DNA from: Raillietiella orientalis
Lineage: Eukaryota
Assembly: GCA_036172245.1 (NCBI GenBank)
Contig: JAYWIR010000001.1
Span: forward strand, 8,494,001-8,558,000
Length of the DNA stretch: 64,000 nucleotides
Direction: 5' to 3'
The notes beneath the pieces are model-generated. The model ran no database searches and was not told the origin of the DNA. It was given only the letters and a program-made list of their open reading frames with translations. Below, piece after piece: positions 4,940 through 41,926 of the stretch; within the stretch, counting starts at the first letter, position 1; each line of letters begins with the position of its first letter. Both the position numbers and the translations under genes were made by a program.

Positions 4940-7932
4940 ATGCGAGGAGGAGACGGTGGAGCGACTCATCCGCCGACGGCGAGACGGCTTGTGTTTCCCG
5001 TTCTTTGCGTGTGGCACAGGTGAGCCATCAGCCATACAGGGGCGAATGCTGGGTCAAGTGCGTTCCGCGAGCGAACGAGAGGGTGTGGGCTTGAAAGTCT
5101 CGCGGGACCGCAAGAGGGCTGTCGAAAGGGAATGGGAAGAGGAAGAAAGGGGGATGGGAGGGTGGGGGGGGGGGAACGCGGAGTCCGAAACGCTCTTGCT
5201 GACTCCTCTCTCTGCTCCCCCAGGAGAAAGTGCCTTCTGGGCAAGTTAAAGGAGTACACGTGCCGTGTAGAGATGGCCATAAAGCTAGAGGAGCTGAGGG
5301 CGGAGCGGTGCGACATCTCGGTAAGGCGCGCGAAACGAGGGAACGAACGGCAGCAGAGGCAGCCAATAGGTGGCTTTGGCGACGCGTTCGCCGTCACCGG
5401 GAGAGGGAGCGTTGCTACCCGGGTACGCCCAGGGCGGGGCAAGGGGGCGAGGGGACGGATAAGGAAGGAGCTGACCTTGTCCATCGCCTCCCCGCCCTTC
5501 GGAAAAGGGTAGGAAAGGGGAGGGCGCCGTCTACTGCTGTCTCTGCTTCTGCTGACGGCGCTCCCCGCTGCTCTCTGCAGTGCAAGATGAAGAACCTGAA
5601 GCGTCAGATGCGGGAGGAGCTGGAGTTCATGTACGGAGCGAAGAAGATGCTGCAGGAGTGCGCGTGCGGCAGCAGGAGGGTGGGCGCTTGCCTCAAGACC
5701 AAGGTACCGGCGGTAAAGGGGGCCCTTGGAGCTGGCTGGGGAGGAGGTCCCGGACTGCCAAGCAGGACCGCTTCGGGATGTTGGAGCTGTTGCGGGAGCT
5801 GCGGTCCGAGAACTGCCTGGACGTCGGCAAGAAGCTGACGGAGGCGCTGCTGCGAGCAGCCGCCAAGAGCGATAGGATGGAGGAGACCTTGCGGTTCCTA
5901 GGAGGCGCGGTGAGTCCCGCGGGTTCCCGATCCCTCCCGACTTCCGGAGGATCCCGGTCAAGGCGAGGGGAGGGGGAGCGGAGGGGAGACGCTTCTCCGA
6001 AGTCGAGCAGGGAGACGCCGGGTCGGCATCTGCGGAAGAGGAGGAGGGTCGGTGAAGGAAGGGAGGGTCCTTATCCTGGGGTCCTGAGCATTTATCCTCC
6101 GCAGTTCAGCAAGTCCGTCGGCGAGCAGAACCAGAAAGAGAGGGCGGAGGCCCTGGAAGCCGTGGAGGCAGCCCGCGGCTGCATTGAGGAGGAGTTGGAG
6201 TCCAGGGCCATCCTTTTGAAGCAGGTATCTGGATGCGGACCGCCAAGCGCGCCATCTGCCTTGCCATCAGGGAATTCGGGACTGTGGGAACACCCGACCG
6301 TATCGCCGGTAGGATTCTTTGTTGGAGAAGGTGTCGCTGTTTTTGTTGTGCTGGTGGTCAGTAGTTTCAGTGGTTTTGCTGCGGTGGTGGCCAGCTCATG
6401 TCACCATTGTTGTTGTGCTGGTGGTGGTCAGTCTCGTAGTGTTTGCGGTGCTGGGCTCCTCCTCCATCCAGACGGGAGGAGTTGCCTCTAGTGGGTAGCG
6501 CCCTTGTGTCACTCAGCTGCGGTCGGCAACAGCGCCCAAGGGCTGCCTTCTCATGTCAGGCGCCTGTCCCTGAAAAAGTTGAAAGGAAGGGGAGCGATGA
6601 GATGTTGCAACCCAACCCCACACCAGCGTCCCCTCTGCAGGGCGGGGGAGGGGAGTTCCCGTTCGGAGCAGTCTGCAGGGAACGTTACTGCTGTCCATCC
6701 CACCGCTGCGCTTGCGGGCGCTCCCAGTGACGCAGCGAATGGTGCGCGCAAGCGGAGTCGAGACGGCCGTTGCAGCATTTGCCGGCGGAATTCCGGGTCG
6801 GAGCCTGGATCCAGGGAGTGCGAGGCAGGAGGCGACGGAGAGTGGCAGGAACCCCCTCGGGGTGGACCAGGCTCGAATCCCTCTCCTGGAGATTCGGCGG
6901 CAGAGTCGCCATGCGCTCTCCGCTCTCCCGCATCCTGAGCCGCGGGCGCGAGGACTCCAGCCGTCTTGTTCCTTTCCCTCTCTTCCCGGTTCTCCAGATG
7001 AAGCAGGTCCTGGATTTTTTCCTGAGCGAAGCCTTCGAGGACATCCTCATCTGCCTGAGGCTGGTCGCCATGGAGCTGCAGCTGGAGGTTCCCGACTGCA
7101 ACTTCATCTGCAGCTTCGAGCACGTCCTGGGGGAGAGCATCCGCGAAAGCAAGGAGAGGTATGCTCCCTCCGCTTCTCTCTGGGAGCAGGGGAGGGGTCT
7201 CGGATCTTCCAGAGCGCGTGCGCAAGAGCGGGAACCCTTCCAGCTCCCCGTTGGGCTGTGGGAGGATGCGCATGCTGAGGGCGGATCAGGAAAGTTCCCC
7301 GCTGTCTCTCGGGAAGCGGGGGGTGGGGATGCTGGCAACGGGCTTCTCTGAGATGCGCCCGTCGCCGCAGCAGCGACCTCGGAGGACAACCTGGACCTTC
7401 GCGGCGCGGCGAGCAGTGACGCCCCAGGCGTCGAGTGCTCAGATCTTCGTGACGAAGCTCGGCCACATGGGTCGACCGTGTCGCGACCGCACTGCCTCGT
7501 TGGAGTGGCCATGCGCTTCGATTCCACACCGCCCTGTCGCGTTTCCCACGCGCCCTGCCTGCATGCTTCCATCCACGGATTTCGCGCCGCAGTGTTACGG
7601 GGCGTGCGGGTGGTTTCCCTGAAAACGAAGAAAGCACCTGCTGCTGTTCCAGGATCGCCAGCTGCATAGTCAAGCACGTCGCTGCGGTCGTTAGCTGCTT
7701 CCAGGAAATAGAGGCCACGTTCAACGAGGAAGCGCGCAAGCTGGTCAGCAGCTGCTCGAGCAGTTTGGTCATCTCCGCTGAAATACCGAATATGAAGAAC
7801 CACATCATCGGCAGCTCCATCAGTAGTTTGCTGGCCGATAACGACAACTTTTACGACATCCTGCTGAACCTGGAAACCTGCCTCTTCGACTCGAAATCTG
7901 TCGAACCTGATGGCGAGCCGATTTCCGATTAA
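4940..7932 (+). CDS. Uncharacterised Cys-containing coiled-coil protein, family copy B (7 exons, about 334 aa)
   Basis: Exons 4940-5019 (tentative), 5224-5320, 5581-5703, 5766-5909, 6105-6224, 6998-7158, 7653-7932 (TAA). All introns GT-AG, phases 2,0,0,0,0,2, with an open frame throughout and mostly G/C-ending codons. Helical E/K/L-rich peptides include CKMKNLKRQMREELEF and VPDCNFICSFEHVLGESIRESKER. Confidence 0.8.
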
Positions 7933-8177
7933 TGCAGAACGAAGCAAGGAAGGGGGAGGGGAAGAAAAAAAAAAAGTTCCCCCCCCAATCTGTGTACTAC
8001 TTTCATCCGCGGCCGCAGACCTCCCACTGTTTCGTCACCATTGTTGCCAGCCGACTAGGCTAGTAATTCGTTCGCCGGAAACATGGCACCCCACCCTCCC
8101 TCAAATTTCAAGTAGTTTTTTTTTTTTGTTGGTTTGTGTGTGTTTCTTCACTCAAGAGTGCTTCAGATACTGCAGCA

Positions 8178-8819
8178 ATGACCCTCAAATTAGGCAGCAA
8201 TACTTGTAGTAGGCTTACCTTGTGTTCAAGTCATACCGGTGGGAGAGCCGAGAGGCATTACGATGCAAGCGAAATTCTTGCCTTCGACAGAAAGCGGACA
8301 AACTCTGCTTTACTGGAAATCACCGAAGAGTACCCTTTTTCGTGTAACAAGCGCACGGCCAAGCTGAGATCGACGAAAGAAGATCCCCTGCTGCTAATGA
8401 GGGAGCTCGATAAGAACGCCAGGAAGAAACAGTCCGGGACTGGCCCCTGGGCGCGCCCGCGCAACTTTTGCTCCCCTCTGGGTGACGAGATCGTCGGCGT
8501 GCAAAGCATGCGGCTTATGAAAGGAACCACCAAATCGACTGATCGTCGTCAATTGTCTTCCGAATATTACGAGGAGAAACCCACTGGAGGACTATATGGT
8601 GTTTTGTGCATCAAGCCGTGGGAGGCCTTCAAAAAGCGCATGGATTCCTGCAATTTTTTCCCCTGGTTTGATGACGAACCCTTGACAGCTACACAAGAAG
8701 CCAAAACCAGGCATCATCGCATTCCTGGAAGAATAGAAAGAAAGCTTTTAGAATTAGAGACGAAGATCCCCTGTCTGGAAGCCGAAGAAAAAGCGAAGGT
8801 GATGAAGGAAACGCAGTGA
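8178..8819 (+). CDS. Intronless copy (C) of the coiled-coil family, 213 aa from the first ATG; candidate retrocopy
   Basis: A single open frame carries, in order, RAERHYDAS (B exon 2 RAERCDIS), KEDPLLLMREL (B exon 4 KDRFGMLELLREL), MDSCNFFPWFDDEPLTATQEAKTR (B exon 6 VPDCNFICSFEHVLGESIRESKER) and KLLELETKIPCL (A exon 7 KVKKIEMQIPCL), with no introns between them. Ends in TGA. Confidence 0.65.
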   Translation: MTLKLGSNTCSRLTLCSSHTGGRAERHYDASEILAFDRKRTNSALLEITEEYPFSCNKRTAKLRSTKEDPLLLMRELDKNARKKQSGTGPWARPRNFCSPLGDEIVGVQSMRLMKGTTKSTDRRQLSSEYYEEKPTGGLYGVLCIKPWEAFKKRMDSCNFFPWFDDEPLTATQEAKTRHHRIPGRIERKLLELETKIPCLEAEEKAKVMKETQ

Positions 8820-9574
8820 TTATGTATCTTGGTTTCTGTTTCTTTGTGTTTCGTACTCAGATTTCATTCTTCCGTAAGTTCTTAGATGTTAAGTGATTCC
8901 AGTGTTAAATATTGTTAGGCGGCCTTAGGTGTACAATGAGTAAGCTTAAAACATTAATGAATCGAAACAGGACATGCGTATGTATACGTACTTATGATGT
9001 GACGTGCACACACAGTGTGATATCGTATTATACATATGCCTATGTACAGTGTACGCACGATGGGCAGATATATAGGGAGGATTTCTGCATACATACATCC
9101 ATGCGTATGTAGAAGAGTTTTTAACATTCGTGCTTGGCTTAGCACATCAACATGTGGAGACTCGATTGTCTCGATTCACTTGCTCCTTACGCGTCCAGCA
9201 TCTCCAATGCATGATTGCTTCTTGTCCTCCATGCACACGTGTTCGCATTCTCACATAGGTCAGTGCGCACAGTTTTTGATGCCTGCGCACACAGGGGAGG
9301 GGGAGAGTATGGGTTTTAACATCGGTCTTGGTAGCCCCGAGCATGGCAAAAGCGAACGGACAGCAAAGATGTTCCGGATCTCCACGCACCTCGGCTAAGA
9401 TCGAATGTTGACTGTTTGTCGGAGGATGGAGCACGGTCTTTGTACACTTGAGACAGGCTTCCTGTATCATTCGATTGTTCATAATTTGCATACAAATGTT
9501 AGGGATCTCTTCCTCGTTTACAACATTTCCCTTCCGTTCGGATTCGCTTCTCTTCGAATGGAGGAAGGCTGGCG

Positions 9575-11649
9575 ATGGCGTCCATCAGGAATGACCTTTT
9601 TCGAGTGATGCCTGCGCGTGCTGCTCTCTATTCCAGCTGAAGAGCTATCCAGATTTGAAAACCTCCCTCCCTTCCTTTCTCTCTTTTTCTCTCTCCCTTC
9701 AGGCCATCAGAATTATAGACATTCTGGAAGACGTGGTTATCGACCATCGCTACGATACTGAACTCATCGAAAGACACGTCGAGACCGAGTACAGCCAGCT
9801 CTCCGACGAGGACATTGCGGTGCTGCTGCGATTTCTACTGGATGCGAAATACGACAGGGGAATGAGCGACGCCGAGCAGCCTCTCTATTCCAAAATCATC
9901 CGGGAAATGGTCGTGCTGCAACTGATCAACAATAGGGAGCAGGACCCGGTCAAGCAAGAGGCCCTGAACACGAGGCTGTCGAAGCTGAGCCGCCTGGAGA
10001 AGGAGAACCTGGAAATCCTGTTGCTGAAGGAGACCGGCATCAGGGACGAACTGCTGGATGAGATTCAGCAGGTGTCCAAGGAGAATGATGTGCTGCTGAG
10101 GAAGACTGTGGAGGAAAGGATGCAGAACGGTCAGCTCATTATCAATATACACGACAAGATGAAGAATTATAACCTGGACTGCCTCCCGGTAAGGGTTCCT
10201 GCGCACCTGCCGCGCTCCATGCCCTTTTGTGACGGCAGAGTCGGGGAGTCGTCATCGCCCTCTGACTTCCCCTATCTCCGTCTCCCAACCTCCCACCGTA
10301 CCCCCTCTCTTTCGGTTGCGTCCCCAGGGAGACAATGATGTTCAAGAGGAGTGCCGCAAGGCTGTCGACAGGGAGTCGCTGTTCCACGAAGCCTGCATGA
10401 AGCTGGAAGACATGGAGAAGGACTGGAACGAGTTTCGCATGTCCATCCAGGTATGCGGGCATTCCTGTGCTTGTCGAACGGTGGGATTTGTGTGAGCGAA
10501 GGAGGGGAAAAAGAGAAAGGCTGCGATAGGGGGAAGGAGAGAGGAAAGTGTCTTCGGTTTCGGCTTCCGGCTTTCCGGAATGGCAGAGACAGCCAGCTGG
10601 CGTTGGTGCCCCTGTTTACCGTTGCTTGGGAACTGCACACCAGTGTCTTTCCTCCCAGAAGCAGGAGGAAGCGACGAGAATTTCTGACCTTGATTCAAAG
10701 TCAAAGATGAGGGCAGGGAAGATGACTGGACTCTGTTCAGTATTGTTTGCCCTCGTCTCAGGCAAAGAAGGGCAGCGAGTAGCAGCAGCAGCAGGATCAG
10801 AAACCTCACGAACCTCAAGCGGTGCGTCCTGATGGTGATGCTGCACAGATGCTTGAGACGAGGCGCAGATCGGGAAGATCGTGTGGGTGGGCGAAGGCGG
10901 TTGTCTCCCTCCCCTTCAAGTTTCTCCCTTTTTCGGCCAGTGCGTGGCGCATGGGCTGGCCACCTACTGGAGGCCGCAGACAGGTTTCCTATGGCAACTT
11001 TCTGGAACGGTCGTCGAGTACCTGGGATGCATAGCTTCTGAAGGAGACCACACCCTTCAGCGTTTCATCCGCTCCCACGAAGAAGGGAAAAGTAGCCTTA
11101 CGCACCCTGCGGAGCGAAGAGCGTGAGTACCCTTCTCCTGCTCCTTCACACGCTTCATACGAGTGCCGTCCCCGCAGCATGCGCAACGAGCTCGGTGGGC
11201 TGCTGAACGACTTTTACGATCGGATCGAGGTCACCCGCCACTGGGCCAGCCAGGACCACGGAGACTACCAGCCACTGCTTCGAGACCCAGTCTTGAGGGA
11301 CACGCCATTACAGGCGTGCTGCGATGCAGCCAGGGGCGCCAGCCGGGTCATGGTGGTGAATCCGGATGACTGGAGCAGCAGCAGCAGTTTCGGCAGCGAA
11401 GGAGCCGGCGGCTACCTGGGAGACGAGCTGGCAAGTTCACCCAAGCCCAGGGAAGGGGTAGATGAGAGCAAGGGATTCCCTCAGGATGCCTGCTCCAGGA
11501 AGCTCTTAAAGGCGATGCCCACGTCCTGCAGCACTGCAAACGCTAGAAACAGCAGCTGTAGTAGGCAGAAAGGGAAGAGGCGAGGGAAGAAGAAGGAGGA
11601 GAAGGAAGAAGGCAGAAAAGAGGAACTCTGCTACAGCCGCCGGCTGTAG
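9575..11649 (+). CDS. Uncharacterised coiled-coil protein, family copy D (about 430 aa, 5 exons; first exon tentative)
   Basis: Exons 9575-9604 (tentative MASIRNDLFR), 9703-10188, 10328-10450, 10941-11122, 11178-11649 (TAG). Introns are GT-AG with phases 0,0,0,2 and join in frame. Strong heptad character (RLSKLSRLEKENLEILLLKETGIRDELLDEIQQVSKENDVLL). The last three exons parallel exons 5-7 of A and B. Confidence 0.75.
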
Positions 11650-13882: not shown

Positions 13883-15250
13883 TCAGTTGGCCCGACCGCA
13901 GGTCTTGCTAAAGTCGTGGTACTGCTCGAAGAGGCAGGGGATCTGCATCTCGATCTTCTTCACCTTCTCGTGGGTGTCGTCTAGCAGCTTCACGATCTTC
14001 CTCCCGGCTCTGGAAAGGCGGGTCAGCTTGGGAGGAGGAAGAGGAGGAGGGGAGAAGAAGGGAGGAATCCCCGTTTCCCCGGGACACTTACGCTTTCTTG
14101 TCTACCTGCCCCAGCTGCTTCATCTGCACCTCGAAGTTCTTGCAGACGTGGCAGTCGCAGTTGACACACTTCTTCAGGTGCTTCGAGAAGGCCACCAGCA
14201 TGTGCTGCAGCAGGGGGGACTCCCTCCAGGTGTTGACGATGTTCACCGACTGGAAGCAGCAGCCGTTGACGCTTCGGACCTCAGCCCCTCTTCCCCTCCC
14301 CCCGCTCACCGCCTGGTACAGCTGATCCCCAAGGTTGCGAATGTGCTCCGTCTCGTCGCAGTAGTATTCCAGCTCCCGGCTCAGCTCCTCCAGCTCTTCG
14401 CGCTGGCCCTCTTCGCGGCCATACTTCGCGGACTGCAGCGAGGAGGAGGAGGGAGGGGAGGGGAGTCTCCAGGGAAATAGGGCATCCCGGTCTCACCTTG
14501 CTCTCGATCGCCAGCACCTCCCTTGCAATCTGCTCCGCCTCGCGCATCTGCACATCGATCTGGTGCTCGCACTCGTCGGTGCGCTGGAAGCAGCTCTGCG
14601 GGGAGGAGCAGTCGCACTGCACCGTCGGGACCCCCTTACTCCCCCTCCCTCCTCACAGCGTTCTCGCCCAGCCTCCTCTTCAGGCACTTCAGCTGCCCCG
14701 TCAGCGACTGCGCGCACTCTTCCTGGGCTCGCTTCTCTTCCTTGACCTTGGCGATCTCGGCCTCGATCTTGTTGATGTTGACCTGCGGAGGGGAGGGAGA
14801 CGCCGAGGTCGCCACCGCCCCGCCTCGGAGCCCTCACAGACCCGCAGGTTCTCGAGCTCCTTCTCTTTCTTCCTCTCCTCGTCCTCGAGGGTCATCCCTG
14901 TCCGGAACGAATACTTCATTTCGTCCTTCTTGGAGGCCAGCTCCATGCACAGAGCTTTGGTGTCCTTTTCGCTCCTGGATGTGGGGTGGGGGCGAGGATG
15001 AAGGGGCGTGGCAAAGGTGGAAGGGGCCGGGGGCAGGAAACAGAAGAGAAGGAAGAAGAGGACGAAGAAGAGGGCTTTCTCCTTCCCTCCTCCCATCCTG
15101 ATCCCGGCCCCACCCTTTCCCCTCCCTCCCTACTGACCCGATCCGCTTGTCGCAGGGGCAGCAGGCGCGCACGGGGATGTTGAGGGCAACGCCGTCCGCC
15201 TCCGAGCGTTGGTAAGCGACGCTTCCGGGACCGTTGTGCCAGCCGGACAT
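13883..15250 (-). CDS. Uncharacterised Cys-containing coiled-coil protein, family copy A (7 exons, 292 aa)
   Basis: Exons (minus) 15250-15138, 14974-14842, 14782-14657, 14595-14497, 14432-14310, 14249-14092, 14009-13883 (TGA). Total 879 nt, all introns GT-AG, phases 2,0,0,0,0,2 as in copy B. Peptides include ELENLRVNINKIEAEIAKVKEEK, KKCVNCDCHVCKNFEVQM and KIVKLLDDTHEKVKKIEMQIPCL. Confidence 0.85.
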
Positions 15251-16045: not shown

Positions 16046-19000
16046 TCACTTCCTAGGGCGCCTCTCCCCGCTGATGGTGAAGACCGCCGGAGGCTGCGTC
16101 TCGTCAAAGTCGCTGCTCCTCCTCCTGGCGAAGAACTGGTCGGCTGCCACTGACCAGGGACTCCCGGAGAGGTCGGATACGGGAAGCAACCTGCATCTGG
16201 GGCCGTCGGAGGACGCGGGATCTCTCCTGACCAGCCTCTCGCAGGAGAGCACGACGCCCCTCCGGGACGCCTCTCCGGGGGCGTCGCCCTCCACCGCCGG
16301 CCTGGCCGCCTTCAGCATCGGAGATACCGCCTGATGCGCTTCGCGTGGGGAAGGCGAGAAGGAAAGGTCGGGATTTCGTTACCTGAACGACGTGGAACAG
16401 CCTGGGCAAGGGAGGGGTGCATCGGAAGGGCACCACGTGCTCCGCAGAGATGCGTGTCCTCTCCCTACTCCTTCCCTGCTTCATCAGCTTCCTGGAAGAG
16501 ATCCCGATCCCCTCCCAGGCTCTTCCAGGGGTGTCTGCGGAGCGGAGCGGAGAAGAACGGGGCACGCGGGAGAAAAGGATAGGAAGGAGCCCTTCCCGGA
16601 GGAAAAAAGGATGGTCCCCCAGCGGTACTCACGAGGCCTTCTTCTGGAGCACCCTCTGCGCCTCGGGGTAGTCTCGGATGGTCTCGTTGAGGTCCTCCTT
16701 GCTCAGGACGAAAACTCTGGAGAAACCTCTGGAGCTAAGGGCGGAGAGAAAAAGGGGAAATGAGCCGCAGGAGGGACGCCACAGGCCACTCACATGACCG
16801 TCGCTGTCCTTCGGTTGCCTCCGGCCGTGGACAGGAGGCTGATCTCCCCGAACACGGACCCTTCCTTCAGAGTGGACAGCAGCACGTCGCCGTGGTCCCC
16901 GCCCATCACCCTCAGCTCGCCCATCTTCACGATGTACATCTCTTTGCCTACCTCACCCTGGGGAGGGAGACACGTGGGACCTCGCACGTCTCACGCCTCT
17001 CGCGGATGGGTCGGCGTAAGCTCGCCGTTTCCCCCGAAAGGCACACATCGCCCCCACGCTTTTGGGACTGCTCGGAGTTCGCAGATGCTCCCTTCTTGAG
17101 CCTTCCGCAAATCGTTGTCCACGACGGGAGCGGCGCGCGCACGACGTCGTCGGCTCGTTAGCTCGAGCACGGCAGAGTTGTCGCTCCCTCTCCGACCAGT
17201 CCGCGCACGCGTGTCCGCTCGACCCCAGCGCTCGAAGTCCGAAGCGGCAACTTCCCTCACCAAGATGGGAGCGAACGGTGCCGTGGCGTCGTGGTACGAG
17301 GCGGCAGCAAACGAGCAGCGGCGGCAACTGCCGCTGCTACCCCTTCGTCTCTCTTCCCGTTTTGTTCTGCCTTTTTGGACGTCGGTCGCCAATTGCTTTC
17401 CTGAGACCGGAAGCCGGTGACCTTGCTGCTCACGCACGTTCCCGTCGCCACCGTCGCTTCCCTAGCGATCGGCGCTTGGTGATGTCTTCCAGGAAGAACC
17501 GTGAGGGAAGGGGGAACAAAAAGCTGTTGCTACAGGCAACAAAAATGCAAAGGAAGAAGAGCTCCGTGGGCGTCGGAAGCCAGGGCTCTTCCACCCTTTC
17601 TTCCCTCCGTCTTGGGGATCTCAAAGTGTTCGCATGCTGCAGCTGGACCCGTCATCGTGAACCTTTCGACGCGGAGCGGAAGACATGAAGACACGAAAGA
17701 GGTATCCTTGGAGCCGAACTCTGCCAGAGTGCAGCTCCAGGCATCCCGCTGATCCGGACGCAGCGCGCGCGCGCATGGAGATCCAGGGACGGAGGAGGAA
17801 AAGAGAAGGTTCGTTCTTCGGGGGGTGGGGTTGCAGAGAAGCTGTCCCCACCTTCTTGCAGATGTAGTCTCCGGGAAGATAGAGCACGGGTCTCAGCTTG
17901 AGGACCAGATCTCGAAGGAGCGCGGAACCGCAGTCCTGGAAGAGCTTCACCTTCTTCAAGGTGTTCATGTGGACGTTCAGCGCGATGTCTCTCTGCAGCT
18001 TCAGAGGCAGCCAGGAGAGCAGGTTCTTCTCATCTGGAAGAAAGGAGAAAGGAAAGGGAGGGATCAAGTTGGGAGATTTCCGTTAATGCTTCAGGGACTC
18101 CGAAAGGAAGGAAAGGGTGATGTCGCACGGGGATTACGGGAGCAGGGAGGGAGCTCCCAGGAGCCGGTCCTCAGGGAGGAAAACTACTCGTCCACGGAAG
18201 AGACCGATGATGAGAAGAGCTGCGCGTGCCCTTCCGTTTGCGCCCGCGGGAGGGACATTTAGGGAGAGGAATCGCTGAAGGAGGGGGCAATGCGTCGCCC
18301 CCACAAACCCCGCCACCGCGAGCCTTCGCGAGGTCGTCGCCAGTGTCCGCGCCCTTCTTCGCAGACCCCCTCCGCAAGTCACTGAGGGAGCCTCGGCAAC
18401 TCTTCGCAGGATCCATCGGCCGGCCAGCCCATGGGTCTCGCGGAGGTCAGAGAGGGGCCTCCTCGCGTGAGGCGAGCGGCTCAGCATTTCCACCGGGAGG
18501 AGGTGAAGGAATGCGTCCGCGTTCCCATGGTTTTTCCAGCATCCGACGACCAAAGGTCACCTCCGTAGGAACGATGGACCTTCTTCTTCTTCCGCTCTCG
18601 CCTTTTTAAAGCGTTCTCGGATCTTGAGTGAGGAAGGCGAAAGAGAAAGGAAGAGAGCAAGGCAGACGCGCGTCTAGATGCCACGCCTTCCTCGCAGAGG
18701 TCTTCGATGGTCCGTGCAGAAGGAGGTTGCATTTCCTCTGGCCCCGATCCTCGGAACTCGGTGTCTCTGATCCTCTCTCGAGATCCTGGGGACGCTCGAT
18801 GTGAGCCCGGAGGCAGGACGCTTCTTTCAAGGTCACCGACCTGGCGAAGATCGACGTCCTCAGCTCGTTTCTTCGATAGCCAGAAGTCTGCAAGACTGCC
18901 ATCTGCGCCTACGGGAACTTCGACTCGCTCCAAGGGTCGGCCATCGCCGCTCTCCAGGGAGAAGGTCATCCAGCCCAAATTGTCCAGATCGTGGGCCTGG

Positions 19001-22000
19001 GGACTCACGAGGGTGGATCGCCCTCTTCCCCTTTTCTCCGCCAAGCGCTCATTCGCTTCCTTATCCCCCCACAGGTCGAAGGGGAACTTGGAACAGGGGA
19101 GGGATAGATGGGCTGATAGGGATATCGCGAGCTGCACCGGGATCGTCCTGGCCTTGTGGCCCGCACTCCGTCCCACTCTCTCTCCGGGTTGCCGCCGCCA
19201 AAGGGGGTGGAGGCGAAGGAAGAGGGGGAGCGGACTTGGCAGCTGGGCTCCTCCTGCGGCCAGCTGCTTCTGGCAACTCCTCCCTCTCTCTCCGCGATAT
19301 CTTTCTATTCCTCCTCCTCCCTTCTTCCCTTCTAGTCAGGCCCGCGATTCCCTACGGCCGGGATACCCTTCACCCTGAGCCTCAGGTGGGAGGTGCAGGG
19401 CAAGAAGGTCCCCTTTGATTTCAGCTCGAGGGCTCTCTCACCTAGAGTCTTCTGAGTCTTCCACGTGTAGCTCAGCCACAGTTTGACCTTGTTCTGCAGG
19501 GTTTTGGATACCTTCAGGGTGTTCATGTGCTGGCCGATCTGGTCCATCATCTTCGTGTACTCCATCTTCTGCTTGGAGGCCGTAGCGACGATGTCACGGA
19601 CCTGAGGGAAGATACCGGGGCATTCAGCTCCTGTGGAGGAGGAAGGGAAAAAAGCGGGAGAGAAAGAGGGTCCGTGACCCCTGCCGCTTCTTAGCGGTGG
19701 ACGGGAGGGGTCGCGGGCTAGGGTCTTCGCATCAGAGAGGGGAGGTCGAAAAACTTGCCTGACCGATGAGGGACGCGAAGATGAAGACCCCCAGAAGCCA
19801 GCTGGCGATCATGAAGAGGTACTCCACCTCGTTGCCGGGTTTGGGGTTCTTGCCGATAGACGTTGCTGTCTTGGTAGCAAAGAAGAAGCAGCGCACGTAG
19901 CTGCAGGGGGGAGCGGTGAGGCACTTGAGGTGCCTGGGAGCCCTCCAGGGACCTAATCAACTCACGCCACACCCAATCCGTCGTAGACGAAATCGTTGGA
20001 GCCGATCCCCTCGTAGGCCGAGATGGCGTAATAGGCGCAGGCATTCAGGTGGATGAGATACACCATGTAGAGGAGCGTCCTCGCGATGCGGATGAGGTAG
20101 GGAAGGGAAAACACCGCGGCGGACCGGTCGAAGAACTCCCAGAACCTCCTGACCTGACCCCGAGCAGCGGAGTGACTCGCCGTTCCTAGACCCTTCCCCC
20201 CCCCTCCCGGAGATTCTTTCCGTCGCATACCTTCAGGAACCTGGGCAGGCGCCACATCGGGTTGGTGCCGTAGAACAGGTACATCACGTCCAGGGGCAGC
20301 AGAGACAGGACGTCCATCTGAGGGAGACGACTCGAATTGCCGGAGGGTATTTTCGCGTCCCGCTCTTGGCGGTGGATGGGGTCTCCCTCGCCCTTCACGG
20401 CTGAGGGCCACGCCGCACCAGCAGACTACGGCCCTCCTGCGAGGAACACGGACTCACCCAGAACTGAGGCTCCTTGACATGGTGCTGGGCCAGCAGCTTC
20501 GGGTCCTCGATCCAGCTTCCGCTCTTTATGATCCTCACTCGTATCTGGAACACGGTGGCATCCAGAAGGTAGATGACGTCCGCGAAGCAGCTGAGGAGAA
20601 GCCAGATGGGGACGACCCCGTCGATGTGCACGGGAAACACGGCGCACAGAGGGATGCTGACCGCGTTGTAGACGAACGCCAGGGCTACCAGGAACAACCA
20701 GGCAATGTGGACCTTGCCTGAGGGAAGACAAAGGGTGAGGATGAGTGTCTCACGGCATCATGGAGCGCGTGTTCTCTCGGACTCCCGCGCCCCTCGCCGC
20801 CCCCTGGGTAGCTCGCAGCCTCTGGCAAGAGAACTGTGTTCCCTCCCGAGAGAAGGCGCGAACTCCCGCAAGGGCTCTGCCGAGGTTACATAACGCCTCG
20901 GGTCGAGGGAATGGCGGACGTGATGCTTCTGGAAGAGGAGGGAGGGAGAGGGAGGGGTGTTTCCTCTCTGTTTCGTCCTCCGGCATCTCTTTACTTTCTC
21001 TAAAATTCCGCCGATGGTAACGAAACTGCGGCAGCTCCTTTTACATGAGGGCGCAGAAGGGAGAGATTCCTGAGGACTGCGACTTAAACGCAGGTTCCAA
21101 GTGGGAAAGGGGAGAAGGGAGGGCGTCGCATTTTGGGTTTCTTTTTGACGCATAGGAAGTGGCACCATCGTTCGTATGGCATACCAGCAGCGGCGGAAGA
21201 AGAGGAGGGTAAGAAAGGAGGAAGTGAGGAGAAAGAGGAGGAAGAGGAAAGGAGAAGGAGGAAGGGAGGAGGGAGCCTTTCGGTGTCGTTGCAAGAAGAA
21301 TGTCCGAAGCGTTCCTGGAGCTGAGTCCAGCAGGATAATCTGATCGCGTAAGAGAAGCCACGAATGCACGAGTTGGATCCACGGTGCCTCATTCCCTTTT
21401 CCTTTCTCCTCGTCTCCAAAGTCAGAGCTGACCAAGAGTGGGCGGTTAGCGACCTTTTGCCCTGTGGGAGAGTGCGGGGTGCAGGGGTATCGAGGTTTCC
21501 AGGTCAAAGTGCTTCCTTCTTGGAAACAGGTTGAGGAGGAGGAGGAGGAGGAGGAGGAAGGGGCTCGTGGAGAGGGAGGTCCTCCCTCGAGGGAGAAGCG
21601 CTGGTCGAGGGGCCACCAACAAGACCAGAGAGTGGCCTGCAGATACCGACCCGAGGAAAAGCCAAAAAAAAAAAAAAACCATAGGAGTGACAGAGTCGAA
21701 GGTTGCAGCTTTGACACACGGAGCCGGCGACTCTGCCTACCCCTCTTTTCCACTGGAATTGGCGCGTATCTGCGTCATCAACCGCTGGGATCAGCAGGAA
21801 TTGCTAGGTCTCCAGCCGGAAGCCTCCGGCACGAACATCTCTCAGGACTTCCCATGCTTGTTCTCGTTCGCACTGTACGCGTCCAGGCCACCAGGTGTCT
21901 CGTCTCCCCCGGGTGGAGGACCTCTGCAGGTGCCGAAAATCTTCCGAGTGAGCGCCTTGCTTGAAGGGAGGGCGCGTTGGGAGCCAAATGAACGTCCTGG

Positions 22001-32876: not shown

Positions 32877-35800
32877 TCAGCAGAGTAACTCGGGGTGTCC
32901 TCTTTCCAAGTGCTTCAGCATGCTGGCGAGGCGTCTGACGGCGCCGTCCAGCAGCTTCTTCTGGTGGGGGTCGTAGTCCGCGGTTCTCTTGGACGCCGGC
33001 TTGGAGGAGATCTCCAGTGGGATAGCGGCACCGCTGGACTCATTCTCTTCCGCCTCGAAGCTCTCCATGAAAGGCTTCAGCGTCTCATCCATCGCGGCGT
33101 ACGATGCGGAGGAATCCCAAGAGGTGACGATCTTCTTTCCCTGAAGAGATCAGGGCCCTGAAGAACTTGGAAGCGACTTGCTCACCTTCCTCCCCATACC
33201 TTGCTATGCCCCCTGGAGACCCTCTGGCGAGCTTCTTCTCGAGATACCGGTCTCTCGAGTCGCAAGGGAGGTAAGCGCGGGGTGGGGTGGTGGTGGTGCG
33301 TGCCGCTCTCAAGATCAGAGAGCGGAGGAGGGGGAAAAGTGGGAAGGAGTGAGCGCGCATCCTCCCGCAGCGATCTTCGAGCAAGGAGGAGGGGAGGAGG
33401 AAGAGCTAGAAGGCGACTGCTTCTTCCTGGATGGAGCCGCCTGCCGCTCCTACCGCGCCCTTTGGAAAGCCACCGACGTCCCTCTGGGGGACTCCCCTAG
33501 CGAGGTCTCAAAGCTAGAGGGTGAACACTGCTGCCGCAACGACGGCCATCTGGGATGAAAGTGTGTTTCCCCGCTCTCTTCCGAGACCCCTCAGAGGTCG
33601 ATGTGTCGCCCCTCTTTCCCCTTCACGAAAAGTCTTCAAACCCTCTGGGGGTACGGTCTTTGGAGAAAACGACGCTGGCCGGCAGGGAACCGCTCCCAGA
33701 CTCAGAGGATGGAGGGGGAGGGATGTCATAGGCGCGGACTTGCTGCTGCGAGAGACGTTCGCGGGGCGGAGCCCAAGAAAGGCAGAGTCGCTCCTTCTTT
33801 CACCTCCCTCCCTCCTCTCTCTCTTTGTCGACGCAGGATCATTTTTTTCCCAGCATCCAACCCTTCGGATGAAGAAGAACGAGGAGGATGGAGAACGGCA
33901 AAGACGGGCCAAACCTCCCTCCGTCCCTCTTCGCCGTCCACTCCGCTCCGGGACGGCGCTGCAGACTTACCAGATCGGTGACATCTTTTATCTTCTCCAG
34001 GAGATTCCGGACCTCGTTCTTGTACTCCTCTGCCTTCGTGTTGGTCATCAGGGCTTTTCTGGCGTCCGAAATCAACAGCTGGATCTCGTTGGCTCTGGCA
34101 GGGAACTGGAAACGCGACGAACTTGGCTTCCTGGCGTCCTAGTCGCACCCTTCTCCCTCCTCGCTTCCCCCGCAGATTCCGCGGGATGGGGGAGGGGAAC
34201 GAGCAAACCCTCTCCGGAACCGGGTGACCCCGAGGTCCCTTCAGTGCGAGGGCACCGCCGGTCCAAACTGCCGACTGGCGGTTGCAGGGGCGCCGGTTCT
34301 CCTGCTCGCTAGGCGCCCATCGGATGTGGCCGGGACCAGCGCAGAAATGGCGGAGGGTGACACTCCTCCACCACCGTCCGCGGAGCCGCGCCGCGAGGTT
34401 CTCGAGATCGCCCCCGCCTCACGTGGGCGGAGCTTCCTCCCCCCTGCAGGGAGCGCTGCAGCGGCCAGGGTTCAGCGACCTCTCCTTTCCCATCCAATCC
34501 TTCCCTTTCTTGGCGTCCCGCTGGCGGGAGATGCTCGCGCGCGAGCCGGATGAAACGCCGATTGACGCTGACGACAGTCCTACATCACCGTCTCCATCGG
34601 CGCTGCCACCGGCAACCGTGGACCTCTCCAGGTAGCCTTTTCCCCTGCCCTCCCATCTTCCTCCAGACATCTCCGGAGGCTGCAGCGCCTCCTCCATCGA
34701 GGGAATTAGCGACGCCCTGTGCTCAAAGCTTCCCAAGGACGCCCGTGTGTTCTCTTGTTCCGCGGGGTAAGAGGAGTGCAGTCCCCCTTGCCCTGAAGTC
34801 CTGTGACTCCGACCTCGAGAGCTCCTTCCCATTCCAGCCGAGGAGCGGTTTCGGGAAGGCTGGGGGGAACCCCAGCGCGTGAAAGACCTCTCAATTGGCT
34901 GGGTCGGCAAGGGATCACAGGAGGAGTATGTTGGCGGAGCAGCAGGAGCTGCGAGGGAAGTCCGAGGGAGACCTTGGCAAAGGCTCTCGGAGGAGCAGCA
35001 GACGAGACCCGGCACTGGGATGCTACAAGTCTCCAGTCCTTTGGAAGCATTCTCTTCCCTCCCCTCTCTTCCACCGAAAGAGGAGGGGGGGAGACACTTG
35101 GCAGCATCCACGGAGCGCCATAGTCTGCCCTACGAGTCGGAATGGTCGCGTGGCTCCGAGACCGCACCAATTCTTTTCCGAAGCTCCCGGTCGCGCACAA
35201 AACATGTCCAGGGCAGCTTCGATGCGAGCCCCTAAGATCCCAGGCCCTACTCTCGCCTGTCGGCCAAGCGACGGGCAAAGCTCAGCCTAGAAAGGTTCTG
35301 CGGAGAAAGGGTCAGCCACGTGGGAACTACGCGATTCGGAAGAGAAGCGTTCCGTCGTCGAAGCACCCGGGAGAAAGACATGGCGGTATGGCGGAAGAAG
35401 TCCCCAGCACAGACGGTCCGCTAATCTGGCCAGCCAGCGAACTGCGTGGTTCGTCGGCCCCGTCCCCGTCCCCGCTTGCAGCGCTCAGAGGCCTGCTCCG
35501 GAGCGTCGCGTCGTCGTCTCCTCTGGCGCCGACGGTGCCACCTGGAAATCCTTCGCGCCGTCCCCTTCGGTGCGGTTCCTCGTCGCACCGGACGGACGGC
35601 GGAGGACTTTCCGCTGAGCTCGCCGCATCTTCACCCGCGGAAAGTGCAGGCAGCACGCGCGGGAAGGGAGGGAACGTGACGAGGTTGCCCCCACTGTTTC
35701 TTTCGCCTATTGCCCTTGCAGCCTTGCTTCTTGTGAATTCGACGAGCTCTTCTCCAGTTCCCCAGCTTCCGGGGAGCACGCAAAACCCTCAGGCGTGTCT

Positions 35801-38800
35801 CAGCAGGCACCTTGGCGCGAAGATCTTATCGTTCTTGACCCGACGCTCCCTCCCTCCACTGCTTTCCCCCGTCCCTGACTCCTGTCTTCGGCATAAACTT
35901 CCCACCGGAGGCTTCAAGAGGAGGAGAAGACCACATGGGTCACGTGCGAACCTTGCCTCCAAGTAGAACATGCTGAAGGGCATGAGACCACATTTCGCGA
36001 GGAAAGTGGGGAGTGGGAGACCTCGCTGTTTCGCGCCATCTGGAGGCAAATGAGGACCTCCATAGTTTGCTTCGGCGTCACCGCCAGGTGTCCTCTTGCC
36101 AACAGCTCTTCCCAGTCATTCATCCCTGCCTCCTCTGCAGAATTCTGGATGCTGCGGGCAGGGCGTACGCTCAGGAGAACTTGGTCTGCCGGTAAGCCAC
36201 GAGTCAACGATACGGCCCGAGAGGAATGAATGCTCCGGTGCCCTCAGGGTGCTGAGGCTATCGCGGCCTGCAAATCCAAGCTTTGCCTTGAGATCCTCCA
36301 GGGATGCGGAAACGATCCACCTTCTCCCGTTTGGGGTCAGGTCGGCCGGGAGCGTTCTCCTTCCGTGCGGACACAGGGAAGCCGCTCGATGCCCTGGGAC
36401 TTTTCGCTCGCAGTCTTGGTAGGGTGCGAGGATTGTGCAGCCCTCCTGGAAGACCACCTCGACTCAGTCTCCTGGGTGAGCCGTGCCTCCGCCTTGAAAC
36501 ACCTGGCACTCGGTAAATGCAGCCGCGCGCTCTCTGCTAGAGAAGGCCCGAAGCTCGGATTCGCAACGGTGGAGCCGGCCGCACTGGTACAGAGGCGGAG
36601 ATGACACGTCACGAAGCTGTTTCTTCCTATCCTTAACTCCTTCCGAGATTTCTGTTCACAGCGAAGGCCGGCCTTGGGCTGTCTCTTCAGCAACCCTCGA
36701 GGCAGCGGCGCTGTGCTCCTGTTTCTGGGTGCGGAAGGAAGCCACCCAGCTCCTCCCAGGGGCAGAGGGATCTTCCCCTATCTCCACGCGCGAACGCTGG
36801 CCAGATGACGCCCTCTTGGTTCCCGGAAACAAAAGACCGCTGTCCCGCACCTCCAGGAATGGCGAGGAAACCCCTTCGCACGGGATCAAGGGTTTGCGCC
36901 GTCCGCCCGGGCTTACTGCTCCCTTCTTCCTCTCACCTTCTTGTTGATCAGGTTCTGGAGGCTGCCTTCCGCCTTCTCCTTCTTCTCGAACAGGACCTGG
37001 TTCTGCTTGGAAAGCTTCCTTAGTTCCTGCTTCTTGCACAGCACCCTGGCCTGCTCCTCTATCTGGGAAGGAAAACGAAGGAGGAGAAAGGTGGGGCAGC
37101 CGCCGTCGATGTCGGGTGCTCCGAGTGTGGCACCTCTCCTTGGCAAACCTCGAAATCGGACAGCGGCTTCCCCTTCCTGAGGCTGCTGTACTTGTTCTTC
37201 AGGTTCTTCTTGATATGGCTGGAGAGGCTGCTCTCGCAGGAGAGGTTCTGGTGGATGAGATCGATCTGCGAACGGATATCCCTGATCTTGTCGCACATGG
37301 CCATCAGCTCTCTCTGGAAAAAGAGCCCAAGGACGTCCCCCATTGCGACAAACGCCACCGGAAACACGCGCCTTCGGCTTCGACGGCGCTCCCGAAAAGG
37401 CAGCAAGCATCTGCGTTTCAGATGGAGCTGTTGGAAAGGCGCAGCGGCCCCCCACCCCCTTCTTCGTGAGCCTGGAGCGCTCCGGAACTCGAGGTGGTCA
37501 GTTTTTACCCTCAAGAATCGCGCAGAGTCCAAAGCGGACTTTCGGACACTCCACTTCCTGATGCAGGGGGGGGGGGCGCAGGTGCTCGTCTAGCCCCGCG
37601 GTCGCCGGCACGGCTGTTGCCTCACTTCTGCATCCACCTTTAACACCTCAGTCTGCCCACCCGTCCATCTAGAGAGACAGATGTGGATGTAGGTGGACGT
37701 TCGATAGGCGTCCGAGTCCTTTCTAGCACCGGGAGACCCCAAAGAGTTGCTTTTTCTTCGCGCGTTCTGCCGCGGTTCCAGACGAGCGACGCGTTCCGCA
37801 TCCGAGAAGCGAGTTCACCTGAAGATCTTCGTTCTGCTGGGTCGTCTTTTCCAGCATGTCCTCCACGGTGGTGTCCGAGCACTCTTTGAGAAGCGCACTC
37901 TGGGCCGACAGCCTCTTCTGAAGAGCTTCCGCTATCTCTTCGTCTCGGCTCATCTTCTCCGTCTGGAAGCACTCTTTCAGCATCCTCTGGCTGTAGCTGT
38001 GCTCCTCCTTCCCCTCTCGGTCCGCTCGATCCGCGTTTTCTTGATCCGGTCTCTGTGGAGGACAGTCCCTTGAGTCCCTCTCAAGACTAGGAACAAGCGC
38101 GCGAGCGCCACTGGCGCTGAGATGAAGCGAAGTCAACCTCCTCCATTGCCTGGGATCTTCCTCGTTCCTACTGAAAGAAGTACCTGTGGGGAAGATGTCG
38201 CAGTTGAGATGGGACGGAAAGTGCTAGTCAGCTGTCGCTTTCGCTATGGGGAAGCGTGGACGGCGTCTCTCCCCCCTCTCTCTAGGGGGAAACTCGAAAG
38301 AGTCCTCTTGGAAGGAGTCTGAGCGCAGTCGGTGAGGGGACGATCCAAAACAGCTTTCGGCAGCCCCGCAGGCGTTCGGAGCACAAAGACCCGCATCAAA
38401 ACAGGCTGTGCACAAGCAACGGAAAATATCCCCTGAGAGCCAGCATGACGGTAAGCGCCTCTCTTGGACACGTTCTCCATGGCAACAGAAGATTTCTACG
38501 ACTGATCTGGAATTTCCTCACCAAAACTTCCAAAAACGGTCTTTGCTTTCTGATCGCTTTTCCCTCCTTGAGGAGCCTTTTGCCTTCAAAAAAAAAACAA
38601 AAAACAAAAAAAGGAGGAGGCAGGTGTTTTTCGCTAAGCAGGAAGCGCCAGTTCTGCATCATTCACAGCGCCATCTCCTCGTCTCCGAGGAACCTTGTGA
38701 TCCCTCGAGGACGAAAGGACTTTCCCCGCAATCTTGAAAGTGGATCTGAGCGAGATGCGCGGAGATCTCTTGTCAAGGAAGAAGAATCGGTTGCAACCAG

Positions 38801-41800
38801 ATGAGGTTCAGAGAAGGAAACGGCTGCAGGGTAGCTTGGAAGCAGAGCAGTGAGCTGGCTTGCACTCGCAGACCTACTTCCGCGTCAGAGAACGGTCGGA
38901 AGGGGGGAAGGCACGAGAGGGAAGGATTCGCGCTGCTTCCGTGAGAGCGCTTGGGACCTCTGTTGGACCTCTCTTGGTGCCGGAGCTGAGGTTGCTCAGC
39001 AGCACCCAGGTACAGAGGGAGCCTCTGGACGATGGCGAGGTGGAAACTCCGCAGGATTCGAGAGCTCAGATCGGACGACTGTGGTGGACAACTACTGTGG
39101 CATCCCCACGGGTACGCACGAGCACTGGAGCATCTTCCGCAGATAAAGAGACCTCTGCCCGCAACTGTGACTGAGGCTCCGGGGGAGGCGGGGATCGCCA
39201 TAGCGCGTGCCCGAGTGGACTGCGTCCAGGAACCACGCGACCAGGAGCGCAGGGTGCTGCACTGCCGCACCCCCCACCGTCCGTGGACCGCAACAGCAGC
39301 AGCGGCGGCTCTCCTCGCACGCACTTTCCGAAGGGAGGAGTCCCACCAGCGTGGAAAGAGAACGCCGCGGATGGTCCAGCGGCAGCTGCTTCATGAATAC
39401 GGGAAAGTGGTCCCCCGGGACGTTCCTAAGGTCGGAAAGCAGATCGAGGACGTCCTGTTGAACTTGGACTCCAGTGCCACCATCTTTTGAACAGCGCCTC
39501 CGTCGCCTAGCGGCAGCAGCGAGCGCGAGCGGAGGCAGCACCAGGCGACGGCGGCGGCAGTCCACTCGGCGGACAGCGGGTGCGGAGGTCCGGTGCCCTG
39601 AGTCGAAGTCCCCAGTCTCGTCCTGAGGACCTTCCTGAGAAAGTGCCGGAATGAGGAGAGCTTCTCGCTCTTCCTCGCGGTCTGGAGAGAGGGATCAACC
39701 CAGCTTTCTTTCGACTCCCTCGCGAATTGCAGGTCTCTTCCCGATGGAGACAACTCCGGTGGCAGTCGGTGGACGGAGTACATCTCCTGGCTCATTGCGC
39801 ACGCGTGGATGGAACGAGGCGGCTCCAGCAGACGACCGGGACGGACCGATGGGAAGTCCACGTCCCTCCCTCCCTTCCCGATTCTCCCCCGACCTGCCGG
39901 TTCTTGGCTGCAACATTGCGGGTGTTTCCGGAAAAAAACAATAAAAGAAGACAAAGGGTCACATGTGACTCCCTCCGGCAGAGGGGATCCTCGCTGGTTT
40001 CGTTTCCTTGGTTGCGAGCTCGTCACAGTGCCAACCGAATGCCTCGTTCTCTCTAAGACCTGAAGAGGAGGGGTCGCACTAGAGGGCAGGTTGTCCTCCG
40101 CACCAGCTGTGGAAGACAACGCCTCCTAAGCGGCCTTCCCTGATTGAAGCAAGTGTTGCCCCTTCAAGCCCCCCCGCGTTTCTCATCGTGGAGGTGGCAG
40201 CTGACCTCAGAACGACCCGTCCCGTTCCATCCGAGACCCTTCCTCCACAGATCTTCTTTCGGAGGAAACGAGGAAGTTGGTTCACTCTGTGGCGCGCTTG
40301 TGACCAGCGAAACGAACCCGGTGAGGGTCCCTTTTGCTGGAGGGAGCCAAGTGACCGACCCTCAGCCGCAGTTGCGAGCAGAGATCTCTCGGGAGAAGGA
40401 AGCGTCTTCCGCGAACACCCCGATGATGCCCTCCTGTCTTCTTTTGGCACCAACCCAGGGGTGGACGCTGGACTTTTGAGCTTCGAGAGCTCGTCCACAA
40501 AGCGACTCCAGGCAGCATTCCCGAACCCAGGGATCGACGCACCTCGCAGGTGCTCTCTCGATGACGAGGGGGGTTCGAGGTCGGCATCCCGATTTCCTCT
40601 GTAGCCACGCAGAGGTGCGCTCAGCAACGGAGGTGGCTCTGGGAGGACACAGCAGATCCCTCAAGCAAGTGCAGGAGGACGGGCGAGACGGGAAACAGGC
40701 TCCCCCTCCCCTCCTTCCGAAGGTCACTTCGGTAGCTGCCAGATGAGGGCTGGGGGAGCTCCGAATGCACTCGAGTCATTCTCGCGAAGGCTGGAGAGTC
40801 TACCGGGGGAGGCTTTCGGGAAGCTGCCTGGGGGAAAGCGACAGGGAGGGGAGGGCGAATGAGATGCAATCGCTCGTCCAGCGATTTCGTTTGCTCTTTT
40901 TTTCGCTCTCTTAGCCGTGTTGCCCTTTGGCGTTCCTGGAGACTCGTTGTCTCTAGGGAGAACTCTGCCCCCTACAGACGAGACAGGAGGACGAATGGAA
41001 GGAAAGAGAGGGGGACGGATGGACGGAGGGGGTGAGGAGTGGGAGGAGCAGCTCCTCTCTCTCCTGTGTGGCCCCTAACCTGTGTTGGGTGTGAGAATGC
41101 TGCCGATGTGAGCAATTGTGGATGACACACAGGTCACAAGATGAGTCGAAGGCACAGTCTGCTGGCGCCCTTCGGGAAAGAAGAGACCACTCCGAAATGC
41201 TCCAGGGGGGAACCTCCTTTGGCAGGCCCACTGCTGATCAGCCTCGCCCTGTCGCGTGCGTCAGGGGGCGGACGCAAAAAGGAAGCTCCACCGCGTCCCG
41301 TTTGCATCCCCCTGGGAGCGGCGCGGATGGCGTCTTCGTTCGCAAGCCCTCCTCTTGGATGACCTTTACTCTCTCCACTCGTATTATTTGCCAAGGGAGA
41401 CCGGAAGGGTCGCCCCTAGCCACAGTTTCCTTTTGCTCCTCGAAGACGTACTTCGGGCAGATGACTGCCTGGGGCGACGAGGCTTCCCCTCCAGCAAAAG
41501 GCAATGTGGGGAGGAGAGTCAATCGCCCCTTCCCCTTTCGCCGACGGGATTGGAAATGTGCTTTTCCGTTAGCGTGTGTGGAGCCTCCAAGAGTCTCAGA
41601 CCGACGAGGGGTCGCGAAAGCCGTAGGCGAAAGGGGTGCAAGGGAGGGAGGAAGGAAGAATCGTTCCACTCGAGGTCTTCCCTCCTGGTTGTCCCGACCC
41701 GAGCGAATGGAATAAGGAAGAAGAAGGGGAGCGAGACCCTCGCGCGTTCGATTTTTGGTGCAGGGTGGGCACTCACGGTGAACAGCTCGAACTGCTGGTG

Positions 41801-41926
41801 GTTCACATTGATGGCCTGCAGCATATCCGGCAGGTCCAGCGTCTTCAGCATTTCGGCGTAGTTCTCGCTGGAGAAGCCGTCGCCATTCCTGGACGCGCTC
41901 CACAAGTCGACGCGGAAATTGGCCAT
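32877..41926 (-). CDS. Uncharacterised coiled-coil protein, family copy E (about 393 aa, at least 7 exons)
   Basis: Exons (minus) 41926-41777, 39454-39347, 38052-37819, 37313-37149, 37062-36937, 34105-33971, 33140-32877 (TGA). All introns phase 0 and GT-AG, 1182 nt in frame. Matches to D: DVLDLLSDLRNVPGDH vs AIRIIDILEDVVIDH, ELRKLSKQNQVLFEK vs EIQQVSKENDVLLRK, NEIQLLISDARKAL vs NDVQEECRKAV. Matches to A: KKIVTSW vs NIVNTW, KKLLDG vs VKLLDD. Extra exons cannot be excluded. Confidence 0.72.

Follow-up and report, generated by a model that had tools for sequence, protein, structure and literature searches.

Two of five loci in a 64,000-nucleotide stretch of the genome of Raillietiella orientalis (contig JAYWIR010000001.1, positions 8,494,001 to 8,558,000 of the forward strand; hereafter the window, from whose first nucleotide all positions are counted) are intact-looking genes for helical, heptad-rich proteins containing 5% cysteine, with conserved cysteine positions. 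These genes, designated A and B, are quite probably paralogues which, to judge from their sequences, have diverged almost beyond recognition. A first-pass annotation had placed them, together with the loci C, D and E, in a single family of coiled-coil proteins clustered around a cyclic-nucleotide-gated (CNG) channel gene. All five loci were recovered where that annotation had located them; on balance, however, the region appears to hold four or five separate protein-coding loci in which no known domain was recognised, with A and B as an orphan coiled-coil pair, and not a five-gene family.

A and B are probably an ordinary orphan paralogue pair. If confirmed, they would lengthen the list of small orphan coiled-coil pairs that diverge fast, and would help to annotate the genome; they would also provide an example of gene structure outlasting sequence similarity, but no long-standing question is opened by them. 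What the results chiefly contribute is negative: the grouping by eye of motifs in helical proteins rich in K, E and L had overcalled a five-member family.

Structure and relationship of genes A and B

All gene models were rebuilt from three-frame prints and splice-site lists, with the outer coordinates, intron phases and exon sizes of the first-pass annotation as inputs. Gene A (13883..15250, minus strand) consists of seven exons (15250-15138, 14974-14842, 14782-14657, 14595-14497, 14432-14310, 14249-14092 and 14009-13883) of 113, 133, 126, 99, 123, 158 and 127 nt, with intron phases 2,0,0,0,0,2, and encodes 292 residues. Its introns, all of the GT-AG type, measure 59-163 nt and are rich in pyrimidines towards their 3′ ends. 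The GC contents at the three codon positions (GC1/2/3) are 0.58/0.34/0.88, and GC3 lies between 0.83 and 0.94 in each exon. Gene B (4940..7932, plus strand), located approx. 6 kb from A in the opposite orientation, also has seven exons (4940-5019, 5224-5320, 5581-5703, 5766-5909, 6105-6224, 6998-7158 and 7653-7932), which measure 80, 97, 123, 144, 120, 161 and 280 nt, are joined through GT-AG introns of phases 2,0,0,0,0,2 and encode 334 residues. Its GC1/2/3 values are 0.55/0.38/0.82, with the coding signature present in exons 2-7. The rebuilt models thus reproduced exactly the identical intron phases reported for the two genes, as well as the paired exon sizes of 126/123, 123/120 and 158/161 nt. 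Across the region, the codon signature (GC3 of 0.71-0.88 vs GC2 of 0.34-0.38) was strong in A, B, most of D, and E.

Heptad content was assessed with a crude, home-made scan (not COILS), with composition-matched shuffles as controls. The residues falling in heptad-like windows amounted to 36% in A (4% in its shuffles) and 54% in B (7%). In the A protein the heptads are concentrated in exons 2-5, and exons 6-7 form a cysteine-bearing C-terminal part; cysteine accounts for 5.1% of the residues of each protein.

Several of the cysteines occupy corresponding positions in corresponding exons. In exon 3 of both genes (14657..14782, minus strand, in A; 5581-5703, plus strand, in B), the residues E-C-A are followed, after eight residues, by C-L-K near the 3′ end, with the same spacing; the resulting CX9C motif lies at residue 105 of A and residue 86 of B. 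One aligned cysteine is common to the fifth exons. Exon 6 of A (14092..14249, minus strand, 158 nt, phase 0 to 2) carries IVNTW and DCHVCKNFE, and exon 6 of B (6998-7158, 161 nt) carries DCNFICSFE, so that the pattern DC..C.FE is common to both. Exon 7 of A (13883..14009, minus strand) contains LL, fifteen residues and CLFE, and the end of exon 7 of B (7653-7932) contains LL, fifteen residues and CLFD; the B exon carries approx. 50 extra residues at its start.

When the two proteins were compared exon by exon, the z-scores averaged 0.90 for corresponding exons (the diagonal of the matrix) vs 0.11 for all other pairings. Among 5040 permutations the true exon order ranked 76th, and 4th of 720 when exons 6 and 7 were merged. 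The summed exon-wise score was 72.0, vs 29.8 +/- 18.1 after shuffling within exons, a value reached by 19 of 1000 shuffles (9 of 500 in another run). Nine aligned columns paired cysteine with cysteine, vs 5.3 +/- 1.5 expected, and this number was reached by 21 of 1000 shuffles. The exon-collinear similarity of the A-B pair therefore exceeds that of shuffled sequences. It is the identical phases, the three exon sizes that differ by one codon and this modest collinear signal, taken together, that argue for the paralogy of A and B.

A number of observations weigh against this relationship. Comparisons that were not constrained by exon order missed it: Smith-Waterman alignment gave z 1.5 (30 of 300 shuffles reached the score), and hhalign gave a probability of 0.2%, with a best segment that was not collinear. 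The exon-wise identities (70 vs 63.2 in shuffles, a value reached by 122 of 1000) showed no excess, and the exon-constrained tests (p of approx. 0.006-0.02) were designed after the models had been seen. Exon 1 of B, with GC1/2/3 of 0.70/0.63/0.54, lacks the coding signature, which makes the first phase-2 intron of this gene uncertain. Furthermore, phase 0 dominates among the genes of the region (four of five introns in D, five of five in E), and the phase match between A and B is weakened accordingly.

Taken to their limit, such points would make all five loci unrelated orphans, the resemblance of A and B in phases and exon sizes being a coincidence among coiled-coil genes built of phase-0 exons. 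The failure of Smith-Waterman and hhalign to link the two genes fits this explanation, as does the local rule of phase 0 and the occurrence of exons of approx. 123 nt in D and E as well. Coincidence would, however, have to account for the agreement of both phase-2 introns (the first and the last), of three exon sizes to within 3 nt, of the exon order (4th of 720) and for the excess of aligned cysteine columns, and we regard it as unlikely. Paralogy of A and B remains the preferred interpretation.

The fifth intron of B (773 nt) contains, at 6340-6440 (plus strand), a degenerate stretch in which GTGGTG/GCTGGTGGT is frequent; Tandem Repeats Finder did not list it at a score of 80 or more, nor did this program report any other tandem repeat in the window at such scores.

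Loci C, D and E and the proposed family

The other three loci differ markedly in the quality of their gene models. Locus E (32877..41926, minus strand) has at least six exons (41926-41777, 38052-37819, 37313-37149, 37062-36937, 34105-33971 and 33140-32877) of 150, 234, 165, 126, 135 and 264 nt, all of phase 0, which encode at least 357 residues; the model may lack exons, as introns of 3.7 and 2.8 kb could hold more. Its GC1/2/3 values are 0.53/0.34/0.82, an AATAAA hexamer lies 95 nt past the stop codon, and 35% of its residues fall in heptad-like windows (4-7% in the shuffles of A, B and E).

Locus D (9575..11649, plus strand) was modelled with exons of 30, 486, 123, 81, 182 and 472 nt, of which the second to the sixth lie at 9703-10188, 10328-10450, 10659-10739, 10941-11122 and 11178-11649; the intron phases are 0,0,0,0,2 and the product has 457 residues. 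The overall GC1/2/3 values (0.57/0.38/0.71) conceal a marked heterogeneity. Exons 2 and 3 are solid (0.59/0.22/0.75 and 0.59/0.27/0.78), vs exons 4 and 5 (0.41/0.48/0.52 and 0.62/0.52/0.60), which lack the coding signature; exon 1 and the tail of exon 6 lack it too, and all four are doubtful. For exon 2, a fold of six helices was predicted (predicted local distance difference test score, pLDDT, 69.7). A Foldseek search of the PDB with this model returned nothing at E ≤0.001, and the best match in VIA-align (wide) had Z 9.0 over 60 residues and corresponded to generic helical hairpins, i.e. no specific structural neighbour was found. The length of this exon (486 nt) is close to the summed lengths of exons 2-5 of A (481 nt) and of B (484 nt), and an origin by intron loss was considered; this idea was rejected because D shows no similarity to A (z 0.6) or B (z -0.6).

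Locus C (8178..8819, plus strand) is a single, intact and intronless open reading frame (ORF) of 213 codons. Its GC1/2/3 values (0.47/0.46/0.56) reveal no codon periodicity, none of its residues fall in heptad-like windows, and single-sequence AlphaFold2 prediction gave a mostly non-helical model with a pLDDT of 31.4. With periodicity, heptads and a reliably predicted fold all missing, the coding status of C is doubtful.

The description of the five products as coiled-coil proteins consequently holds for A, B and E (35-54% heptad windows) and not for C (0%) or D (7%, with 4% in the shuffles of D and 1-4% in those of C and D), in which coiled-coil character was not detected. Much the same applies to the motifs said to be shared in the same order by all five: the strings are present in the loci, but each is common to only two to four of them. 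Tryptophan-containing strings occur as IVNTW in A, IVTSW in E and TYW in D; the cysteine motifs are DCHVCKNFE in A and DCNFICSFE in B, with CNF in B and C; in the tails, IPCL is found in A and C, and KLLD, KLLE or KLLK across A, E, C and D. The supposedly common C-terminal motifs of D fall in exons without a coding signature, among them exon 5, the source of the element previously listed as ATYW.

All-against-all alignment and profile comparisons yielded no support for a family that includes C, D and E. In whole-protein Smith-Waterman comparisons with shuffled controls, the best raw score of the ten pairs was that of A-E (z 2.8, reached by 6 of 500 shuffles), followed by D-E (z 1.7, 30 of 500) and A-B, with z ≤0.6 for the remaining pairs; among the C-terminal parts A-C was best (z 2.1, 23 of 500) and the other pairs did not exceed 0.95. 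After correction for ten pairs, no pair was beyond chance in either comparison. A tblastn search of the window with the five proteins (E <5) gave 36 non-self matches, none of which coincided with an exon modelled for one of the other loci. The hhalign probabilities for all ten pairs (≤1.5%) were similar to those of 20 controls in which A was compared with shuffled B (0.1-1.3%). Hidden Markov models (HMMs) built from each aligned pair of A and B exons and run against the six-frame translation found only A and B; the next matches had E ≥0.065, and none lay on the coding exons of C, D or E. The gene structures give a mixed picture: A and B are identical in intron phase, D matches them only in its phase-2 last intron, the introns of E are all of phase 0, C is intronless, and the exons of E do not follow the order of those of A (rank 291 of 720) or B (rank 169). 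Membership of C, D and E thus fails because no significant pairwise or profile similarity was found beyond coiled-coil composition, which is the outcome that the first-pass annotation had itself named as evidence against a family.

Exons of 120-126 nt that are symmetric and of phase 0 occur repeatedly in the region (126 and 123 nt in A, 123 and 120 nt in B, 123 nt in D and 126 nt in E), without sequence similarity.

Alternatively, all five loci could descend from one ancestor and encode filament or scaffold subunits that assemble together and have evolved so fast that pairwise comparison no longer links them. Several of the observations listed above would fit such a family. In both A and E, the string IV[NT][ST]W lies three residues past a phase-0 intron, with KLLD at a distance of 56 and 58 residues downstream. 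To this may be added the sharing of IPCL by A and C and of CNF by B and C, the few shuffles that reached the A-E and A-C scores, the phase of the last intron of D and the recurring phase 0-0 exons of A, B, D and E. Such an ancestry is quite unlikely, given that none of the ten pairs survives multiple-test correction, that none of the tblastn matches fell on an exon of another locus, that hhalign stayed at the level of its shuffled controls, that the HMMs of A and B exons missed C, D and E, that collinearity of E with A and B is lacking, and that C and D are not heptad-rich, the exon with the tryptophan motif of D being moreover devoid of a coding signature.

The A-E pair deserves separate mention as a point against complete independence of the loci. 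Not only was its whole-protein score the best of the ten, but exons 6 and 7 of A scored z 2.6 against the final exon of E; a remote link between A and E at the C-terminus is therefore conceivable. As part of the overall explanation favoured here, D and E appear to be unrelated helical or coiled-coil orphan genes, separate from A and B and, like C, unannotated.

Known protein families and a possible role of A and B

The queries used in the database searches were single exons or unspliced pieces of the window, not joined exons, and the negative results are therefore weaker than those of full-length searches. Within this scope, the earlier statement that no known domain could be recognised was supported: Pfam searches with ORF pieces and 22 single exons (16 at E up to 10, 6 at E up to 1) gave nothing at threshold, and the protein libraries likewise yielded no relative. 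Among 5.8 billion clusters searched by word index, none scored at E ≤0.01 for C (87 candidates), for the exon 5-intron-exon 6 piece of A (157 candidates) or for exon 2 of D (845 candidates). ESM Atlas gave no usable match for exon 2 of D or exon 7 of B, and a PDB sequence search with a piece of A and exon 2 of D gave no matches with E values of 1 or below. When metagenomes were scanned with a CNG exon as the anchor, eight loci were retrieved (42-70% identity), none of which carried a relative of A-E; the best tblastn match in these loci (E 0.003 over 36 residues) was not collinear.

A phmmer search of 1.84 billion representatives with a piece of A produced a single match, to a 195-residue protein (P0002) containing five copies of a 12-residue repeat. 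This match was rejected as spurious, as it fits a read-through of intron and exon.

Among the known families, tektins (Pfam PF03148) are likewise helical, filament-forming proteins of similar size. In agreement with the earlier observation, their nonapeptide was absent (no match of its regular expression in six frames), and no exon, searched singly, matched the Pfam profile. Twin-CX9C (CHCH) proteins, e.g. MIC19/CHCHD3, are defined by two CX9C motifs in consecutive helices. A and B resemble them in having one CX9C at the same place in exon 3. Judged by motif position, however, neither gene has the paired arrangement: A contains only the motif at residue 105, and in B the motifs at residues 30 and 86 are 56 residues apart and not paired in a hairpin.

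A and B also resemble lineage-restricted orphan coiled-coil genes derived from local duplication, which are common and usually testis-biased. A and B share with them the lack of a detectable homologue, a local cluster, a high helix and heptad content, fast divergence and a gene structure that is kept better than the sequence.

The best lead to a known domain concerned B. Residues 2-25 of its exon 3 matched positions 1-24 of the 67 positions of HR1 (PF02185), with E 0.052 and 13.9 bits; the query was exon 3 alone, and a complete domain would extend into exon 4. HR1, which occurs in PKN, rhophilin and rhotekin, is an antiparallel coiled coil that binds Rho, and exon 3 of B resembles its first helix, so that B, and perhaps A, might be read as a small Rho-effector-like protein with an HR1 finger. 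The score lies far below the cut-off of 33.1 bits, however, and covers one third of the profile; A has no such match, neither gene is accompanied by the kinase, PH, BRO1 or PDZ partner domains, and weak chance matches are common for coiled-coil profiles, all of which makes this identification very improbable.

For A and B as an orphan pair, a role may be sketched from the organisation of the proteins. Exons 2-5 encode a heptad-rich middle that would fold into a coiled coil, either dimeric or antiparallel. The CX9C of exon 3, the DC..C.FE of exon 6 and the LL-x15-CLF[ED] of exon 7 would make up a cysteine-bearing C-terminal module that might serve as the specific end of the molecule, binding a partner or a metal, or being cross-linked or lipidated. 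A coiled coil with such an end would suit scaffolds or adaptors, and we infer that A and B may act as these and not as enzymes.

The CNG channel gene and the compositional setting

The CNG channel gene (16465..20757, minus strand), recognised by its PDB matches, is the immediate upstream neighbour of A, which lies 1.2 kb further down the same strand. Its exons matched bovine CNGB1 (1.2e-13) and, in another exon, human CNGA3 (1.7e-20), with approx. two thirds identity. The last exon of its cyclic-nucleotide-binding domain (CNBD; 16465-16700 region, minus strand) ends in ...QKKAS, at a GTGAGT donor of phase 2 that overlaps a TGA, and a terminal exon of 22 codons is possible at approx. 16537-16467. 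The channel thus ends at most approx. 22 residues past the CNBD, i.e. it has almost no C-terminal tail.

The acceptor of exon 2 of A (14974, minus strand) is also of phase 2 and lies on the same strand approx. 1.65 kb downstream of this donor. Exons 2-7 of A could therefore be joined in phase to the channel gene, as its 3′ exons in at least some transcripts, and would supply a C-terminal coiled coil to a protein that otherwise stops shortly after the binding domain. Such phase compatibility is nonetheless expected in one case out of three by chance, and the paralogue B has no channel gene upstream. Moreover, exon 1 of A has its own ATG, which an in-frame stop precedes by two codons, and a GC3 of 0.86; A was kept as a separate gene for these reasons, and a fusion with the channel is very unlikely.

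A C-terminal coiled coil sets subunit assembly in other CNG channels, in which it is known as CLZ, the leucine zipper of CNGA subunits. A resembles CLZ as a coiled coil situated just 3′ of the CNBD with compatible splice phases; unlike CLZ, it has its own start exon, and the likeness noted is one of position and phase. It is highly improbable that A and B, possibly with E and C as remote relatives, are a family confined to this lineage whose coiled-coil proteins, with their cysteines, serve the function of the channel. If they did, A could supply the C-terminal coiled coil, either by alternative splicing or in trans.

The channel gene itself is of mixed likeness (exons at 17852-18037 and 20398-20757, minus strand). 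Its first transmembrane exon is nearest to CNGB1 (54.5 bits vs ≤34 for CNGA), and the exon encoding the C-linker and CNBD is nearest to CNGA3 (76 bits vs approx. 51 for CNGB).

The five loci and the channel gene lie in a GC-rich block (57-64% GC) that extends from approx. 4 to 44 kb of the window, vs 32-55% GC in the flanks. The border of the block is sharp, and the genes within it are compact, with GC3 up to 0.94. The only break in the block is a stretch of 48% GC at 8-10 kb, inside which C is located.

No Rfam matches were obtained. At 22460-23110, long ORFs overlap on both strands and are rich in C, H, T and V (...VHSV..., ...CTHCTR...), which suggests a repeat that is degenerate or of low complexity; a tandem array was not called there. 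At the edge of the block, an ORF at 43927-44325 (minus strand) contains a C-x2-C ... H-x4-C knuckle and resembles the tail of a non-LTR (long terminal repeat) retrotransposon reverse transcriptase; its Pfam match to zf-RVT is weak (E 0.16).

The AT-richer flank carries exons of a major-facilitator gene (48346-48702, 50680-50991 and 58113-58400, plus strand) with a match to MFS_1 (E 1.3e-9), which by eye resembles a monocarboxylate transporter. Its long introns, of 2-7 kb, contrast with those of 59-64 nt in gene A.

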